Positions 1-46,452 of a stretch of DNA of 46,452 bases are shown here, one piece after another. Source of the DNA: a virus; IMG/VR virus record IMGVR_UViG_3300049933_000058, positions 1 through 46,452 of that record; one strand, written 5' to 3'. The notes under the pieces were generated by a model that was given only the letters and a program-made list of their open reading frames with translations, did no database searches and was not told where the DNA came from. Positions within the stretch are counted from its first letter, which is position 1; each line of letters begins with the position of its first letter. The translations under genes and the position numbers were made by a program.

Positions 1-127
1 GTATCAACACTATACCTGTGTCTACAAGGTTGGCTATGGTGCTGATGATAATGGTTTTACCCTCGTCTCTCATCAGGTAGCCAGACTGCTCACAAAGGCG
101 CTGTAACAGTTTATAGTCACTCAAGCC
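1..127. repeat. Terminal direct repeat (left copy), identical to 46326..46452
   Basis: Bases 1-127 match 46326-46452 exactly. This implies a circular or terminally redundant complete assembly with a unique length of 46325 bp. Confidence 0.95.
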
Positions 128-13129: not shown

Positions 13130-13152
13130 CGTTGTAGTATTGTGATAACAAG

Positions 13153-13394
13153 AGCTAAACCAGGACTCGAACCCAGTAACCTCATTATAGCTTGGATAGG
13201 GCTATGGCAGAAGTTAGTCACCTGACTATAGCAAAGTTGACACTCCACTCTAAAGTTAGCCACACCACCCTGTAGCTTTCTCTGGAGTATGAGTTGCTTA
13301 GTTCACTCTCAACCGGTTAGGGTGGTACCTAGTATCCTGTGCTTTCAGCGTGTCTTGCCTGTCTTTCCAAGCTGTCAGTGCCATTCCTGAACAC
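13153..13394 (-). ncRNA. Candidate structured RNA C, ending in an acceptor/T-arm minihelix
   Basis: The minus-strand promoter AAGGTGTTATAAT (-10 at 13401-13406) matches loci A and B. The RNA 5' end AGAGTGTTCAGGAATG resembles B (GGAGTGGTCAGGAAAG). The 3' end is AGCTATA-ATGAGGTTA-CTGGG-TTCGAGT-CCTGG-TTTAGCT. Only one spurious-looking ORF overlaps. Confidence 0.45.
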
Positions 13395-13539
13395 TCTTTT
13401 ATTATAACACCTTTTAAAGGTGTTATGGTGACCTTTGGGTAGTTGCTTCAGACGTTCTCCATCCGGTCTCCTTTATTATAGCACTCCTTACAGTCTAGTG
13501 TGTTATAACAATATCACGAAACATAGTTTTAGAAAGGTA

Positions 13540-14186: not shown

Positions 14187-15173
14187 CTACTCTAGTCTTT
14201 GGTGTTCAGAGTCTATCCAGGACAAGGGGTAAGTGGGAGGGTATGAGCCTTTGTCAAGCAGGGTATTAACTAGGTCTATTTCAGGTTGGCGGATAAAACC
14301 GTCTAAGAGCATTGCTGGGAAGTAAACACTCATTTCTTTCCAAACAGCCCTCCTAGCTTCGATATGGATAGCGCCTGGCATAGGGTCGCCGCTTTTTAAG
14401 AACCTTTTGGGTGCGTTTATTCTCACAGCCTCCCTTAGTTTCTCTATTAAACCTCGCACACCTAACGTATACTCTGGCACTATCCCCTTATCTACATTCT
14501 CCTGTATCCGTTTTGCAACTACTACCGGGCAATGGAAACACCCCATTCTTAGACTTCCTGTTTGTGACTCTGCTATCTCATACATATCCATTATGTTATC
14601 ACAACACCCTTGGTATAATATACCATCGATATACATTGTGATATAGTCCCATACATCACAGTTACCCCATTCGCTAATAGGTTCTAAGCCGTTGCTCAGG
14701 TCGGATAAGCCACACTCGCCGTCTCTACAGTCTTTAATACGCTTATCCCTTTTACTAGACTCTCCTAAGTGTACCCCCGTTAAAGCAATACCTGGTATTG
14801 CTTTCATAGGTCTTACTTTAAGGTTATTGGTACACCATCGGTTGCGGTAGGTAGGTACAGGGTAACCTAGCCCAAACTGAGTAACCCAGTAACTACGGGT
14901 GATATCCGGCTTGGTCTGTATAAACTCCACCTTACCTTTACAAGCCTCCTTAACACAGTCTATCAGGTGATATAGCTTATTCACCTCTAGCCCCGTATCT
15001 GAAAACACTACCTTTACATTTAGAGCCTCCCCCCTTAACTCACACCATTTTAGGTAAAGTGCCAATAGCACATGACTATCTTTCCCACCCGAAAAAGCCA
15101 ATAAGTATTCTTTATCCTTGGGTAGAGCATCTAACATGTTATAACTGCGCTCTATTTTTGCTTCTAAGTTCAT
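14187..15173 (-). CDS. PP-loop ATP pyrophosphatase of the PAPS reductase / DndC-like family
   Basis: LLAFSGGKDSHVLL (SGGKDS PP-loop), NRWCTNNLKVRPM (PAPS reductase/DndC-like), and Cys motifs CRDGEC and CFHC. Confidence 0.7.
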   Translation of the reverse strand: MNLEAKIERSYNMLDALPKDKEYLLAFSGGKDSHVLLALYLKWCELRGEALNVKVVFSDTGLEVNKLYHLIDCVKEACKGKVEFIQTKPDITRSYWVTQFGLGYPVPTYRNRWCTNNLKVRPMKAIPGIALTGVHLGESSKRDKRIKDCRDGECGLSDLSNGLEPISEWGNCDVWDYITMYIDGILYQGCCDNIMDMYEIAESQTGSLRMGCFHCPVVVAKRIQENVDKGIVPEYTLGVRGLIEKLREAVRINAPKRFLKSGDPMPGAIHIEARRAVWKEMSVYFPAMLLDGFIRQPEIDLVNTLLDKGSYPPTYPLSWIDSEHQRLE

Positions 15174-15207
15174 TACCACTGTCCCACTACAACATCCTTA
15201 TTATACC

Positions 15208-24287: not shown

Positions 24288-24514
24288 TAAAACATTACCT
24301 ATTAACCCAACCTCTTGTTACAGCAGAGTTACTCGCCGCGTCCAATGCCGTAGAACTGCCATTCAGGCTTGTTACAGGTGATGACTTCCTAGGAAGTGAT
24401 AAAGTCCTATACAGTTAAAACCTGCTTAGTCACCTCTTTCAACGGAGAGACCGTTATTGTCACGTACCTCCAAACAGTCAAATAACTCTGTTATCACAAT
24501 GACACAGTAGTACT

Positions 24515-24539: not shown

Positions 24540-24547
24540 AATAGGGG

Positions 24548-24576
24548 TTGCAACTTTTGGAGAAAGGTGTTATATT
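24548..24576 (+). promoter_or_regulatory. Promoter of RNA A
   Basis: TTGCAA, a 17-nt spacer, then TGtTATATT. Its AAGGTGTTATAnT context is shared with loci B and C. Confidence 0.7.
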
Positions 24577-24582
24577 AGAGAA

Positions 24583-24899
24583 GTGGTGAGAGAGCCACAG
24601 TGGTGTGATAGGTCAGAGTTTGCGAACACCCTTCGGGGTTACTAACCACTCAGGCTATGCTGCTAAGGCTCTCAAACCGTAAACCAAACCTGGCTTCTAA
24701 CTGGTGGGGACATCAGACTGAGGCCAACAACGACACTACCAAGTCTCTAACAAGGTAACAAACAGCACACAGCTTCAATGGAGACAAGTCTCCTGCCTGA
24801 TATGAAGTGTTAGTGGCACTCATAGTAGCCCTAAAGTCACCCGTCCTGATGAGTCAGGCCAAAGGGATAGGTGATAGAGGGGCACCGCTATGGGTTAAC
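24583..24899 (+). ncRNA. Candidate structured RNA A (about 320 nt), fused at its 3' end to tRNA-Ile
   Basis: No credible ORF. The first ~90 nt align with RNA B. A C(UUCG)G hairpin lies at 24628-24639. The RNA ends at the mature 5' end of the tRNA. Ends are approximate. Confidence 0.6.
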
Positions 24900-24972
24900 G
24901 GTACTATGGCTCAATGGTTAGAGCAGCTTCCTTATAAGAGGTTGGTTATGGGTTCGAGTCCCATTAGTACCA
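24900..24972 (+). tRNA. tRNA-Ile, anticodon UAU (reads AUA)
   Basis: Hand fold: GGTACTA-TG-GCTC-AATGGTTA-GAGC-A-GCTTC-CTTATAA-GAGGT-TGGTT-ATGGG-TTCGAGT-CCCAT-TAGTACC-A. Total 73 nt, with a 7-bp acceptor stem and a canonical T loop. Confidence 0.85.
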
Positions 24973-25001
24973 CTCTGTTATCACAATACTACGACCACCA
25001 T

Positions 25002-33101: not shown

Positions 33102-33449
33102 TCACGTCTTGATAGCATTGTAACCAACCCGCCTTAGATAGTAGTCCTTAACCCTTGGTGCAACCGCTGTCGCCATAGGTCTTGCCCTCATGAACCGGGT
33201 GCCATACTCTACAAACCCGGCGTAGGGCGTCTTGTTGGATAGGGTGAGTGAGTTCAAGTTATCCGTCACCACCCAGTTAGAAGCCAGTCTACCAGTCCTC
33301 ACCGGTGTTGCTGCTCTTAGTTGCTCCTCAGCGTAAGCCTTAGCCTCTAGCGCTGCTCTCCTCATCACAGGTCTAAGGCCGTCTAACACATTACTGTTGA
33401 GCTTTATCTTTACATCTACGGTAAGACCAACACTTCGCTTCTTAGCCAC
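33102..33449 (-). CDS. HK97 gp10-like head-tail connector protein
   Basis: TPVRTGRLASNW ... YAGFVEYGTRFMRARP fits the HK97 gp10 family pattern. Confidence 0.55.
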   Translation of the reverse strand: MAKKRSVGLTVDVKIKLNSNVLDGLRPVMRRAALEAKAYAEEQLRAATPVRTGRLASNWVVTDNLNSLTLSNKTPYAGFVEYGTRFMRARPMATAVAPRVKDYYLRRVGYNAIKT

Positions 33450-33527
33450 TCACACACCTCCTGTTAACTACCTTGAGACTGTGTAGGCGTTATCACAATA
33501 CCACGCTAAAGTTGGTTTACCAACAGG

Positions 33528-33557
33528 GTTGTCACTTCTGGGAAAGGGTGTTATACT
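33528..33557 (+). promoter_or_regulatory. Promoter of RNA B
   Basis: TTGTCA, an 18-nt spacer, then TGtTATACT, in the same AAGGGTGTTATAnT context as loci A and C. Confidence 0.65.
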
Positions 33558-33563
33558 AAAGGA

Positions 33564-34068
33564 GTGGTCAGGAAAGAGCGGTGTGAAAGGTCAAGGTTTC
33601 TGAACCCTCCTCGGAGTTACTAAGCACCTAGGCAATGCTACTCAGACCGGGCTACAACAACATAAAGTAGGAAGGTGACCCGAACGTTTCACCAGTGTAG
33701 CGTCACTTAAACCGCCAAAGGAAGCTAGTTGGTAGGCTAGCAACGTTACTACACTGTGCAGTAGCTATTGAGAACCATTCGGCGGCAGTGTTCCGGTAAC
33801 ATAGTCAGAAGGAGTTGTGAGCGGTACTCACATCTGCACCCTCAGGTTAACGGGCAACAAGTCAGTGTGGTAGCTGACAGGGCTAACGCCCTATACACTG
33901 GGAAAGACTAGGCTATCGTCTACAAACCTGAACACTCGGTTACAGCCTACGGGCTAGACACTATGGACTGAGTTATTAAGGGCTGTAGCACTCTATAACC
34001 GCCTTATCCGACCGTGGTAGTGTCCGGAACGATAGGGAGGGTTAGGAGGGCTATGGCTGTAGGCTAAT
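33564..34068 (+). ncRNA. Candidate large structured RNA B (about 500 nt)
   Basis: No ORF of 60 aa or more lies anywhere in 33450-34146. It has its own promoter, its 5' ~90 nt align with RNA A, and it ends at a tRNA-like element. Ends are approximate. Confidence 0.6.
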
Positions 34069-34125
34069 GGCAGTTCTGGCGACAGGACGTTGTAAGACCT
34101 GGTAGGTTCGACTCCTACAACTGCC
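34069..34125 (+). ncRNA. Truncated tRNA-like element lacking a D arm
   Basis: GGCAGTT ... GTAGG-TTCGACT-CCTAC-AACTGCC gives a perfect 7-bp acceptor stem and T arm. The 26 nt between them can form only one imperfect arm (AGGAC-GTTGTAA-GACCT). Confidence 0.6.
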
Positions 34126-34146
34126 TTTGTCAATAAGGAGTCACTC

Positions 34147-34356
34147 ATGCCCATTTATAAGGACGGTTATAGCACCTACTCAATAGAGGGTTTGGAAGTA
34201 AAAACTAGTCCGCGTAGTCAAACCATAACTATAGAAGGTGTAACGAGGGAGGTAGCGCGGTATGGTGAGTTATGCCAATACCTTTACCTTGTTGAGAACA
34301 CTGCCGAATATAAGTCTAAAGACTGGAGGAATGATATTGAGAGGTTTTTAAACTAA
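34147..34356 (+). CDS. Hypothetical protein
   Basis: 69 aa. AAGGAG lies 6 nt before the ATG, and a terminator follows the gene. Confidence 0.65.
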   Translation: MPIYKDGYSTYSIEGLEVKTSPRSQTITIEGVTREVARYGELCQYLYLVENTAEYKSKDWRNDIERFLN

Positions 34357-34382
34357 AGCCTAAAACCTAAACATTACATCTC

Positions 34383-34408
34383 ACCACCGTTCATACCGGT
34401 GGTTTTCT
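34383..34408 (+). terminator. Intrinsic terminator
   Basis: ACCACCG-TTCATAC-CGGTGGT followed by TTTT. Confidence 0.7.
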
Positions 34409-34449
34409 GTTGTTATCACAAAGTCACAACACAGTGGGTAGCATTGTTA

Positions 34450-35043
34450 TCACACGCTGAAGAGAGGTTCACCGAGGGCTGAGAAACCTAGGTAGAAGTA
34501 CTCATAGGTTACTTTGGAGGATATGACACACGGTACAAAGTTGGTGCGTGTTCTTTCAGCTTCCTTAAATAGTCTACCGTTGCGTAGGTACTTCAAAGGG
34601 ACTCGGATAAACAGTTTACCCTTAGGGGTGTCCATGGTGCCAGGGAGTGTAAAGGGTAGCTGTAGACTCTTGGCTGTCCAGATACGATGCTCCACACCTT
34701 GTGTAGACAGTACTAACCCTAGTATCTGTTGTTGTCCTAAACCACCCCACACACTATTAGATATCACTATCAGCGCGCGTTTAACCTCAGGTGTCCATAG
34801 AGTATCCCAATACTCCGCTGACCAACCATTCAGCCATCCAAGGTAGTCTAGCCACTCCACAGGACATACAAGGGGGTCGAGGCGTTGATAAAGAGTCTCC
34901 AGTAGTGTCTTTGTACGGGTTAGGAACTCATCAGGCTGGGTTAACAATGCCTCTACATCTGGGTTGTTTTGGTAACCGTCACGGGGTAACCGGAGGAACA
35001 CCGGGCGGCCTTTATCCCACGGCGTAGAATAGGCGTTAGACAT
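34450..35043 (-). CDS. Phage tail protein I (P2 gpI-like baseplate protein)
   Basis: WLDYLGWLNGWSAEYWDTLWTPEVKRALI ... GLGQQQILGLVL fits the tail protein I pattern. Confidence 0.6.
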   Translation of the reverse strand: MSNAYSTPWDKGRPVFLRLPRDGYQNNPDVEALLTQPDEFLTRTKTLLETLYQRLDPLVCPVEWLDYLGWLNGWSAEYWDTLWTPEVKRALIVISNSVWGGLGQQQILGLVLSTQGVEHRIWTAKSLQLPFTLPGTMDTPKGKLFIRVPLKYLRNGRLFKEAERTRTNFVPCVISSKVTYEYFYLGFSALGEPLFSV

Positions 35044-45378: not shown

Positions 45379-46452
45379 CTAAGGACTCGATAACGCCTTA
45401 ATGGTTTCACCCTTTTTAGGTATCCTCAGACCGAGCGCGCTAGTGTAGTTATAGGTTCCTCCACCAGATGACCGATAGGTGTTGCCTTGTAACCCAGTAA
45501 TATCAATGTGAAGATGCACCCCTGTAACCTTACCTGTAGCGCCTTGCTTACCTATTAACTCACCTCTCTTAACCTGTTGACCCATCCTAACTAAGCGCGC
45601 TGATAGGTGCATGTATCTGATAATGCTACCATCAGCGTGTTTTATATTGATACAGGTACCACTGCCAGCAAACCCACAGACCACACCGTCTTGCATAGAA
45701 TAGACAGGTGTCCCCTCACTTGCCGCGATGTCTAGACCGATGTGGGGGGAAGTACCAACGCTTCTTATTTGGTTCTGAGTAGAGGTGACCGTGCCATTAG
45801 TAGGCCAAACGTAACCCTGTCCTGTTGGTGGCTGTGGTGGTGTTTCCCCATTGGATACCCCTCCGGGTACCGAGTTATCCAAAACCTCTACAGGGCTGTA
45901 TACATTGAGTGTGGTGGTACCCTCTCTCAGGTTATGCTCTACCTTATCAATAGCCCATATCCGTGATAACACCCCTGGTAAACCCTCTGTGATAACAGTA
46001 AACAATGGTGCTAGGGTTAGGGAGGTCTTAGACAACGGGATAACAAAGGTAGAGGGTAACCCCTTGAGGCGCTTAGTACGGGCAACCTGTGTTGCAACAG
46101 TAGCTTGTGACTCCGGTGCGACCGTGGCTTGTTTGTTGTCTGACTTTGCCCCCGTAGCTGCTTTGTCCTTAGCCTTGTCAATATCAGGTGACTTAGCCTT
46201 AAAGGTGCCAGTAGCCGGTTCTAACTCTGTCTTCTGCTCTGTTTGGACAACACTCCTACCCTCATCCTCAGCATCGTCACCCAACGCCTCATCCTTGATA
46301 TCCCACTTCAACAGGTTTAGACCCGGTATCAACACTATACCTGTGTCTACAAGGTTGGCTATGGTGCTGATGATAATGGTTTTACCCTCGTCTCTCATCA
46401 GGTAGCCAGACTGCTCACAAAGGCGCTGTAACAGTTTATAGTCACTCAAGCC
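45379..46452 (-). CDS. Tail hub / tail-associated lysin, C-terminal part with M23 peptidase domain. Continues into 1..1264.
   Basis: M23 metallopeptidase motifs HIGLDIAA ... GVHLHIDI at the C-terminus. LSDYKLLQRLCEQSGY is weakly gpD-like. The ORF is open to the window end and continues at base 1264 via the overlap. Confidence 0.8.
   Translation of the reverse strand, partial: GLSDYKLLQRLCEQSGYLMRDEGKTIIISTIANLVDTGIVLIPGLNLLKWDIKDEALGDDAEDEGRSVVQTEQKTELEPATGTFKAKSPDIDKAKDKAATGAKSDNKQATVAPESQATVATQVARTKRLKGLPSTFVIPLSKTSLTLAPLFTVITEGLPGVLSRIWAIDKVEHNLREGTTTLNVYSPVEVLDNSVPGGVSNGETPPQPPTGQGYVWPTNGTVTSTQNQIRSVGTSPHIGLDIAASEGTPVYSMQDGVVCGFAGSGTCINIKHADGSIIRYMHLSARLVRMGQQVKRGELIGKQGATGKVTGVHLHIDITGLQGNTYRSSGGGTYNYTSALGLRIPKKGETIKALSSP
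46326..46452. repeat. Terminal direct repeat (right copy)
   Basis: Identical to bases 1-127. Confidence 0.95.

Follow-up and report, generated by a model that had tools for sequence, protein, structure and literature searches.

A putative family of large structured RNAs with tRNA-like 3' modules in cyanophage-like viruses

Architecture of locus B

The window analysed here is the whole 46,452-nucleotide (nt) stretch of the IMG/VR virus record IMGVR_UViG_3300049933_000058 (positions 1 to 46,452), and the element under study, designated locus B, is a candidate gene for a large non-coding RNA located within positions 33450-34146. A first-pass annotation made from the letters alone had described this interval as free of open reading frames (ORFs) of 60 amino acids (aa) or more, and this description holds, the longest ORFs having 47 aa (33768-33911, plus strand) and 53 aa (33993-34154, minus strand). 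No ORF was found to be conserved across the homologues of locus B described below, and no protein-coding gene turned up in the interval.

Locus B begins with a sigma-70-type promoter (33529-33557, plus strand) with the -35 box TTGTCA (33529-33534), the -10 box TATACT (33552-33557) and a TG dinucleotide at 33549-33550. Both the TTGTCA and the TG-n-TATACT elements are present as originally annotated, whereas the spacer comprises 17 nt and not 18. The promoter matches the consensus at 10 of 12 positions, which taken alone is no more than chance would provide (one consensus match in 1.2 kb, with 1.3 expected from shuffles). The 32-nt promoter block recurs with two mismatches (0 expected) at 24546-24577, in a second cassette of the window designated locus A, and a TTGaCA-N17-TGnTATAnT promoter is found at the equivalent position in every relative. 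Because of this conservation at locus A and across the relatives we judge the promoter to be real, and the RNA is predicted to start near 33563-33564.

The predicted RNA consists of a 5' domain (M1, 33564-33648), a variable central region (33649-33917) that includes a small module (M2, 33745-33800), and a 3' domain (M3, 33918-34064), all on the plus strand. A single-stranded 4-nt linker, UAAU (34065-34068, plus strand), leads from the closing helix of M3 to a transfer RNA (tRNA)-like element of 57 nt lacking a D arm (34069-34125, plus strand). The downstream gene noted earlier is also present on the plus strand (34135-34356), with a ribosome-binding site AAGGAG at 34135-34140 and a 69-aa ORF that starts with ATG at 34147 and extends to 34356. 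It is followed by an intrinsic terminator (34383-34410, plus strand) with a stem region at 34383-34403, a 7-bp stem and a T tract, and then by the motif GTTATCACAA at 34412. The region thus described has one promoter and one terminator on the plus strand and would form a self-contained transcription unit.

Homologous cassettes in metagenomic contigs

Relatives of the window phage were reached via the two proteins flanking locus B, in contigs (L numbers) from Logan, JGI or ENA metagenome assemblies. The same cassette build, ORF-free and consisting of a promoter, several hundred nucleotides and then a tRNA or tRNA-like element, was found in 11 related metagenomic contigs. Six independent lineages can be aligned to most of locus B, namely the window itself, L115/116/117, L083, L114, L084 and L086. 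In the four lineages aligned end to end, the stretch between the predicted start and the 3' end of the tRNA-like element measures 508-564 nt. In L084 and L086, two tandem repeats of a GAGAGAACC box occupy the 5' part of the RNA in place of the M1 domain; by eye, each repeat is followed by an apparent H-type pseudoknot (for example, GGAGGU-AU-CCCC-ACCUUU-ACUAAAC-GGGG). The RNA bodies of the more distant contigs L087-L091 cannot be aligned with locus B; those of L087 and L089 also end in T-arm elements, and a tRNA-Ile(UAU) behind a short leader is also present in L087, L088, L089 and L091.

BLASTN searches with locus B and with a 20-kb part of the window gave no matches among 50,697 phage records, and an exact-pattern scan for locus B homologues in the viral contigs of IMG/VR gave none. 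Searches of IMG/VR with the tail protein, alone and as an alignment, revealed no relatives of the window phage, and those with the gp10-like protein returned distant, irrelevant loci only. IMG/VR, which lacks this phage group according to our searches, also served as the basis of a survey of 10,006 candidate structured viral RNAs (PMC10690425).

Conserved secondary structure of the RNA body

The first-pass annotation had made its reading depend on the existence of homologues with conservation and covariation. Such homologues exist, and both conservation and strong covariation are observed in them. M1 forms a single long irregular hairpin comprising the helices P1, P1b, P2 (AGUGU/AUGCU) and P3/4 and the tetraloop hairpin P5, with conserved bulges AGGAAA and GAWAG, and is common to locus A, L085 and L113. 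The long hairpin was recovered by RNAalifold from four full-length homologues. In helix P3/4, six of the eight pairs show compensatory changes, and 97% of the cells are canonical (seven sequences, hand-anchored register).

The central region shows 50-62% identity between relatives and carries lineage-specific hairpins, together with a conserved block, GGUUAACGGGCAAC. Its module M2 has an invariant core, GCAGUAGC-N(3-6)-GAACCAU-NNN-GCGG (33758-33784), located inside covarying helices. Nine copies were found in seven lineages, two each in L084 and L086; M2 is absent from locus A. Compensatory changes occur at four of the five pairs of the outer helix, and the loop is closed by one covarying pair. 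The strands of the core (AGUA...GAA) do not fit the consensus of a kink-turn or a sarcin-ricin motif, and both assignments were rejected. The 19 matches to the M2 core pattern in JGI metagenome contigs are attributed to chance, with the flanking helices absent in all of them, as is the single pattern match in the GTDB genome contigs, found in a metagenome-assembled genome of Lonsdalea. The D loop of the phage tRNA-Ile (24912-24920) contains the sequence AUGGUU, complementary to the invariant 7-nt loop GAACCAU; this observation was made post hoc and may be a coincidence.

M3 (147 nt) consists of a closing helix H1 (33918-33924 with 34058-34064), a branch with H2 and H3, and a long arm H4/H5. 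For the six lineages, RNAalifold predicts 44 pairs with 95.8% of the cells paired, and 16 of these pairs show compensatory double changes. In slid controls, with the partners shifted by one to three columns, 27-47% of the cells were paired with one to three compensatory pairs, and none of 500 column shuffles matched the observed score. A covariance model of M3 (R1) scores 171 bits at 33912-34071 and 139-172 bits across the six lineages; elsewhere in the window, and in 16 unrelated phage loci, it gave no signal above noise. The model misses locus A, a third cassette of the window (locus C), L085, L113 and L087-L091, which have only M1 or the general design in common with locus B.

Between the window and L115, M3 is 97.3% identical and the adjacent gp10 gene 77.6%, whereas the M1 domain of the window is closest to that of L083 (90.8%). 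This contrast in identities indicates that the locus is mosaic, under strong constraint, or both.

The tRNA-like element and its slot

The 3' element has the architecture proposed for it, with a perfect 7-bp acceptor stem and a T arm, exactly 26 nt in between and no D arm. The acceptor strands GGCAGTT (34069-34075) and AACTGCC (34119-34125) enclose a linker (34076-34082), a middle hairpin (34083-34101) and the T arm GTAGG-TTCGACT-CCTAC (34102-34118, T loop UUCGACU), all on the plus strand; no CCA is encoded. The element shares with canonical phage tRNAs the 7-bp acceptor, the 5-bp T stem and the UUCGACU loop, which agrees with the UUCRANU consensus, and it has the G53-C61 pair. It differs from them in the missing D arm and in an unconserved middle hairpin with a 6- or 7-nt loop, which does not qualify as an anticodon arm: its loop is GUUGUAA in the window, and in the L115 orthologue an unrelated stem of 6 bp carries a loop of 6 nt.

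ARAGORN does not call this element, finding only the tRNA-Ile at 24900-24973 in the window, and the Rfam tRNA model gives no match to it at threshold. The best permissive Rfam match is a partial one to tRNA-Sec (19 bits, E=0.89) that skips the D and anticodon arms, and the folding z-score is only -1.6. Although weak when taken alone, the element is considered real because a tRNA or tRNA-like element occupies this slot in every relative and its stems show compensatory changes. In L083, the slot after M3 is occupied by a near-canonical tRNA-Ile(GAU), identified by ARAGORN and below the Rfam threshold, with A33; in L086, by a 40-bit tRNA-like element with a short anticodon arm; and in L114, by a D-armless element like that of the window, followed by a canonical tRNA-Ile(UAU). 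L115-117 carry the orthologue of the window element with the same T arm and an almost identical acceptor stem, and the 26-30 nt between the arms cannot be aligned with those of the window, yet again form one hairpin. In five lineages, compensatory changes were detected at five of the seven acceptor pairs and three of the five T-stem pairs. Since the stems covary while the middle is replaced, selection appears to maintain the acceptor/T-arm minihelix and some hairpin, not the D arm or the anticodon.

These data bear directly on the possibility that the interval is the remnant of a decaying phage tRNA cluster, made up of non-functional spacer and a tRNA pseudogene. Such decay might explain an element that lacks a D arm, is not called by ARAGORN and scores under the Rfam tRNA threshold, as well as the fuller tRNA in the same slot of a close relative. 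The acceptor and T stems, however, are perfectly paired in two lineages with unrelated middle segments, the RNA body shows compensatory changes and a higher conservation than the protein gene beside it, and a permissive Rfam scan revealed no tRNA-like piece in the locus B body. A tRNA remnant has thus been largely refuted by covariation and we regard it as extremely improbable. An attP site or a tRNA 3' fragment was also rejected, as the element has both of its acceptor strands and a scan of 30 window ORFs revealed no integrase.

Several relatives encode tRNA-like genes at the Rfam tRNA threshold (37-45 bits) with shortened or odd anticodon arms (L085 7661-7915, L086 2447-2515 and L087 618-689, all on the minus strand), one of them with a 2-nt 'anticodon' according to ARAGORN. 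Elements of this kind occupy the tRNA slot in L085, L086 and L087. This phage group seems to accumulate non-canonical tRNA mimics.

With such mimics at hand, the RNA and its tRNA-like tail might act as a tRNA-directed decoy or handler that binds, sequesters or mimics tRNAs, for example by absorbing host tRNA-targeting nucleases or chaperoning phage tRNAs. It would account for the many tRNA-like genes of these phages with intact acceptor/T arms and aberrant anticodon arms, and for a middle hairpin swapped wholesale between close relatives within flanks of about 97% identity. The complementarity of the M2 loop to the tRNA-Ile D loop and the proposal that GOLLD RNA cages hold linked tRNAs (PMC12286853) point in the same direction. 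Set against this, the loop complementarity is a 6-nt match noticed post hoc, M2 is missing at locus A, and no defence or nuclease context was found, so a decoy role appears doubtful at best.

The position of the element relative to M3 is also conserved. The linker has 4 nt in five of the six locus B lineages (window, L115, L083, L114 and L086), and at locus A and its one relative, L085, the closing helix of an unrelated 3' domain ends 3-4 nt before the tRNA. A helix ending 3-4 nt before the 5' end of a tRNA or tRNA-like element is what would be expected if RNase P cleavage at that point makes the mature 3' end of the RNA.

Paralogous cassettes and the downstream genes

Two further cassettes, A and C, bring the number of RNA cassettes in the genome to three. 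Locus A (24546-24973, plus strand) has the same promoter, followed by a 5' domain of the M1 type and a 3' domain of its own, and it ends in a canonical tRNA-Ile(UAU) at 24900-24973. About 100 nt after the promoter block also recur here, and about 330 nt before the tRNA are ORF-free. The tRNA, called by ARAGORN and scoring 68.5 bits with Rfam, is followed by a terminator, and the 3' domain has 36 predicted pairs in common with L085. A hammerhead ribozyme suggested at locus A by CUGAUGAG was dismissed: the A is not conserved in L085, the structure is a plain hairpin, and Rfam gave no match. Locus C (13146-13411, minus strand) was found by searching the window for T-loop matches (match at 13163-13173). 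It is ORF-poor and has an extended -10 element, GGTGTTATAATA, and an RNA of about 250 nt that ends in the T-arm hairpin CUGGG-UUCGAGU-CCUGG directly upstream of a 247-aa gene. Its orthologue is the 3' part of the RNA that adjoins gp10 in L113.

What follows these RNAs differs from cassette to cassette. The 69-aa ORF downstream of locus B has no match in Pfam or PHROG, and its slot contains an unrelated 76-aa ORF without a family match in L083 (10667-10897) and no ORF in L115, where the same terminator lies directly 3' of the tRNA-like element. From these comparisons, the small downstream ORF is variable cargo, predicted to be co-transcribed with the RNA. The release of the RNA from a downstream mRNA, which the first-pass annotation had offered as the role of the tRNA-like module, therefore cannot be its conserved purpose, given that the ORF is unrelated in one relative and absent from another.

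The same variability counts against the idea that the RNA is not a free molecule and instead serves as a long cis-acting 5' leader controlling the expression, processing or stability of a downstream partner, which would be the tRNA at locus A, the small ORF at locus B and the 247-aa gene at locus C. In agreement with a leader function, loci B and C have no terminator between the RNA and the next ORF, the locus A RNA directly precedes a canonical tRNA, and the RNAs of L085, L087 and L114 head or neighbour small tRNA arrays. The partner, however, is not conserved, as seen from the 69-aa ORF and its counterparts in L083 and L115, and the same M1 domain precedes entirely different downstream genes. 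With about 500 nt and three self-closing domains, the RNA is also far larger than known bacterial leaders. We consider a cis-acting leader unlikely, if less so than a decoy.

Comparison with known RNA families

Rfam 15 was searched at gathering thresholds with the window and seven relatives, and permissively (E up to 5-10) with loci B and A and five relatives. These scans returned only tRNAs, with no match to GOLLD, ROOL, transfer-messenger RNA (tmRNA), RNase P RNA or group I/II introns, and the earlier inability to place the RNA body in any family is borne out by the absence of a matching Rfam 15 family. No tmRNA was detected by ARAGORN or Rfam; the acceptor stem is closed locally, and its position 3 is a C-G pair, not G-U. 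RNase P RNA had been suggested by the shared words CUGAACCC and GGGUAGGCUG and was discarded for lack of a model match. The mascRNA-menRNA model gave no match in 33300-34500 at E up to 10, and scored 21 bits on the locus A tRNA against a threshold of 42.5.

GOLLD and ROOL, whose functions are unknown, occur in phages and prophages close to tRNA islands; the 3' part of GOLLD is conserved and its upstream part variable, and it sometimes has covalently linked tRNAs, for which its cages have been proposed as holders (PMC12286853). A highly diverged member of such a family, or of the tmRNA, RNase P RNA or group I/II intron families, could resemble locus B in being phage-borne and tRNA-linked with a conserved 3' part below a variable upstream part, as in GOLLD (PMC12286853), and the pseudoknot-like repeats seen by eye near the 5' ends in L084 and L086 would suit it as well. 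No Rfam 15 model, however, matches the bodies of locus B, locus A or five relatives at E=10, and ARAGORN finds no tmRNA, which makes descent from a known family very unlikely.

The comparison with GOLLD and ROOL drawn at first pass is apt as an analogy (phage-borne RNAs near tRNA islands) and not as membership, in the absence of a model match. Like them, locus B is phage-encoded, hundreds of nucleotides long, multi-domain with covariation support, and fused to or adjoining tRNAs. GOLLD and ROOL measure 0.58-0.8 kb against about 0.5 kb for the predicted locus B RNA, and neither Rfam model matches it. In locus B, unlike in GOLLD and ROOL, the module formed by the tRNA or tRNA-like element has a fixed place at the 3' terminus, 4 nt from the closing helix, and there are three cassettes per 46-kb genome. 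GOLLD, ROOL and OLE have recently been shown to form RNA-only cages or dimers (PMC12286853), GOLLD and ROOL assembling into homo-oligomeric nanocages. We therefore regard the predicted locus B family as new but of a general kind already known, with GOLLD and ROOL as its nearest counterparts. By analogy, its RNA may be a GOLLD/ROOL-like phage RNA acting during infection, possibly in connection with tRNAs.

The 3' end of locus B recalls two other systems. In MALAT1/mascRNA, the 3' end is formed by RNase P and a stable structure just upstream protects the new end (PMC8457004). Like MALAT1/mascRNA and NEAT1/menRNA, locus B would specify a long non-coding RNA ending in a tRNA-like element without normal anticodon function, and five of the six lineages have this layout, an acceptor/T-arm minihelix at the 3' end of a longer structured RNA. 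MALAT1 and NEAT1 are eukaryotic nuclear RNAs protected by triple helices, whereas the protection at locus B would be a plain long helix.

The second system is the tRNA region of phage T4, which encodes two stable RNAs of about 120-140 nt inside the tRNA cluster (species 1 and 2, or RNAs C and D). Their function is unknown, and they are co-transcribed with the phage tRNAs and released by the tRNA-processing machinery. The proposed locus B RNA would resemble these molecules in its co-transcription with, and release from, a tRNA or tRNA-like element.

Proposed biogenesis of the locus B RNA

The sequence features of the locus, the conservation and covariation of its RNA, the absence of coding potential and the synteny with tRNAs are all observed. 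Taken together, they suggest that locus B is probably the gene for a large, multi-domain, structured non-coding RNA, which would represent a previously undescribed family of cyanophage-like viruses, fused to a tRNA or tRNA-like element and with a 3' end set by RNase P. The first-pass observation is confirmed, and its interpretation of the locus as a stable RNA ending in a tRNA-like processing module is supported as far as sequence analysis reaches, with transcription, RNase P processing and stability being predicted properties of the RNA.

In the proposed pathway, host RNA polymerase would use the strong extended -10 promoter to make a precursor of about 560 nt, comprising M1, the variable centre with M2, M3, the 4-nt linker and the tRNA or tRNA-like element, with the optional small ORF and the terminator beyond. 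The element would retain just the features read by RNase P, RNase Z and the CCA-adding enzyme, that is, the 7-bp acceptor stacked on the 5-bp T stem and the consensus T loop. Cleavage by RNase P at 34068/34069 would set free an RNA of about 505 nt, ending 3' in a tail of 4 nt attached to the long closing helix of M3, a shape that would resist 3' exonucleases. A 3' end made by RNase P would also explain why only the RNase P determinants of a tRNA survive in locus B.

Several points weigh against this interpretation. The M3 structure rests on six independent lineages and that of M1 on seven, and the strands used for the compensatory counts in M1, M2 and the acceptor and T stems were chosen by eye. 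Folded as a single sequence, locus B shows no unusual stability (z = -0.74), and single-sequence folding of locus C is likewise uninformative. The 97.3% identity of M3 between the window and L115 could reflect recent recombination instead of selection. The 4-nt spacing is not universal, as additional nucleotides separate M3 from the tRNA-like element in L084. Finally, the protein subunit of bacterial RNase P binds the leader of its substrates, and a helix only 4 nt from the cut site could hinder the bacterial enzyme.

Genomic context

An exact 127-bp direct repeat is present at both ends of the window (1-127 and 46326-46452), and because of this terminal repeat the window is taken to be a complete genome of about 46.3 kb, either circular or terminally redundant. 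It corresponds to the JGI metagenome contig Ga0500145_0000071. The genome encodes tail, baseplate and neck proteins, a SU10-type capsid protein, a primase and a DNA polymerase whose nearest database relatives are polymerase-gamma-like enzymes of cyanophages. The tail protein is most similar to those of phages of filamentous cyanobacteria, the closest cultured phage being Leptolyngbya phage Lbo402-yong5 (38.7% identity in the tail protein), which is not syntenic with the window, and a close relative of the window phage carries an NblA gene. Judged by these protein similarities, the window phage is cyanophage-like.

The motif GTTATCACAA also occurs upstream of locus B (33489-33498, plus strand), so that its copies bracket the locus, and it is found upstream of the cassettes in L083, L085 and L115. 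The 10-mer GTTATMACAA has 63 occurrences in the whole window against 0.23 expected (for example, at 24490, 24977, 33489 and 34412), and 86 copies of the core TGTTAT[AC]ACA are spread over the 46 kb, on both strands and within as well as between genes. Motif copies bracket all three window cassettes and those of the relatives. The motif resembles the extended -10 element (TGTTATACT) of the cassette promoters; candidate roles are those of a regulator site, promoter-like element or recombination boundary.

Two other genes were also recorded. A gene of the PAPS-reductase/PP-loop family, which may serve DNA or nucleotide modification, is located at 14187-15179 (minus strand) in the window and at 7534-8523 in L083. 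A Phage_ProQ_C-like gene with a putative RNA-binding domain lies just beyond gp10, near the cassette, in L083 (11946-12314), L084 (12951-13334) and L086 (3844-4233). The encoded protein was considered as an RNA partner and dropped: it lies beside the cassette in these three contigs and has no homologue in the window.

Implications

A more far-reaching proposal is that the cassettes represent a new class of phage 'ornate' RNA, always fused to a tRNA or a minimal mimic of one and working on tRNAs, with the M2 loop docking on tRNA D loops and the swappable middle hairpin serving as a specificity or decoy module. We offer it as a long shot. If it were true, such a phage could shield, sequester or deliver tRNAs, for instance against host tRNA-cleaving defences, and three diverged copies in 46 kb would amount to a major, previously unseen RNA-based infection function in cyanophages.

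The probable interpretation of locus B as a structured RNA gene with an RNase P-defined 3' end has consequences of its own. Large structured RNAs whose function is not known are rarely found, and new biology has come from every new class. The locus B family appears to be new and is supported by covariation, in a phage group that was not found in IMG/VR viral contigs and has only distant matches among GenBank isolate phages. In its modular build, with a fixed tRNA or tRNA-like 3' module 4 nt from the closing helix, the connection of large phage RNAs with tRNAs becomes explicit, and this design gives a directly testable mechanism, RNase P-defined 3' ends. To our knowledge, there is no bacterial or phage non-coding RNA for which RNase P cleavage is established as a dedicated 3'-end strategy. 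Locus B also suggests how far a phage tRNA gene can be pared down, to a form without a D arm and with a free middle hairpin, while its minihelix is still under selection.

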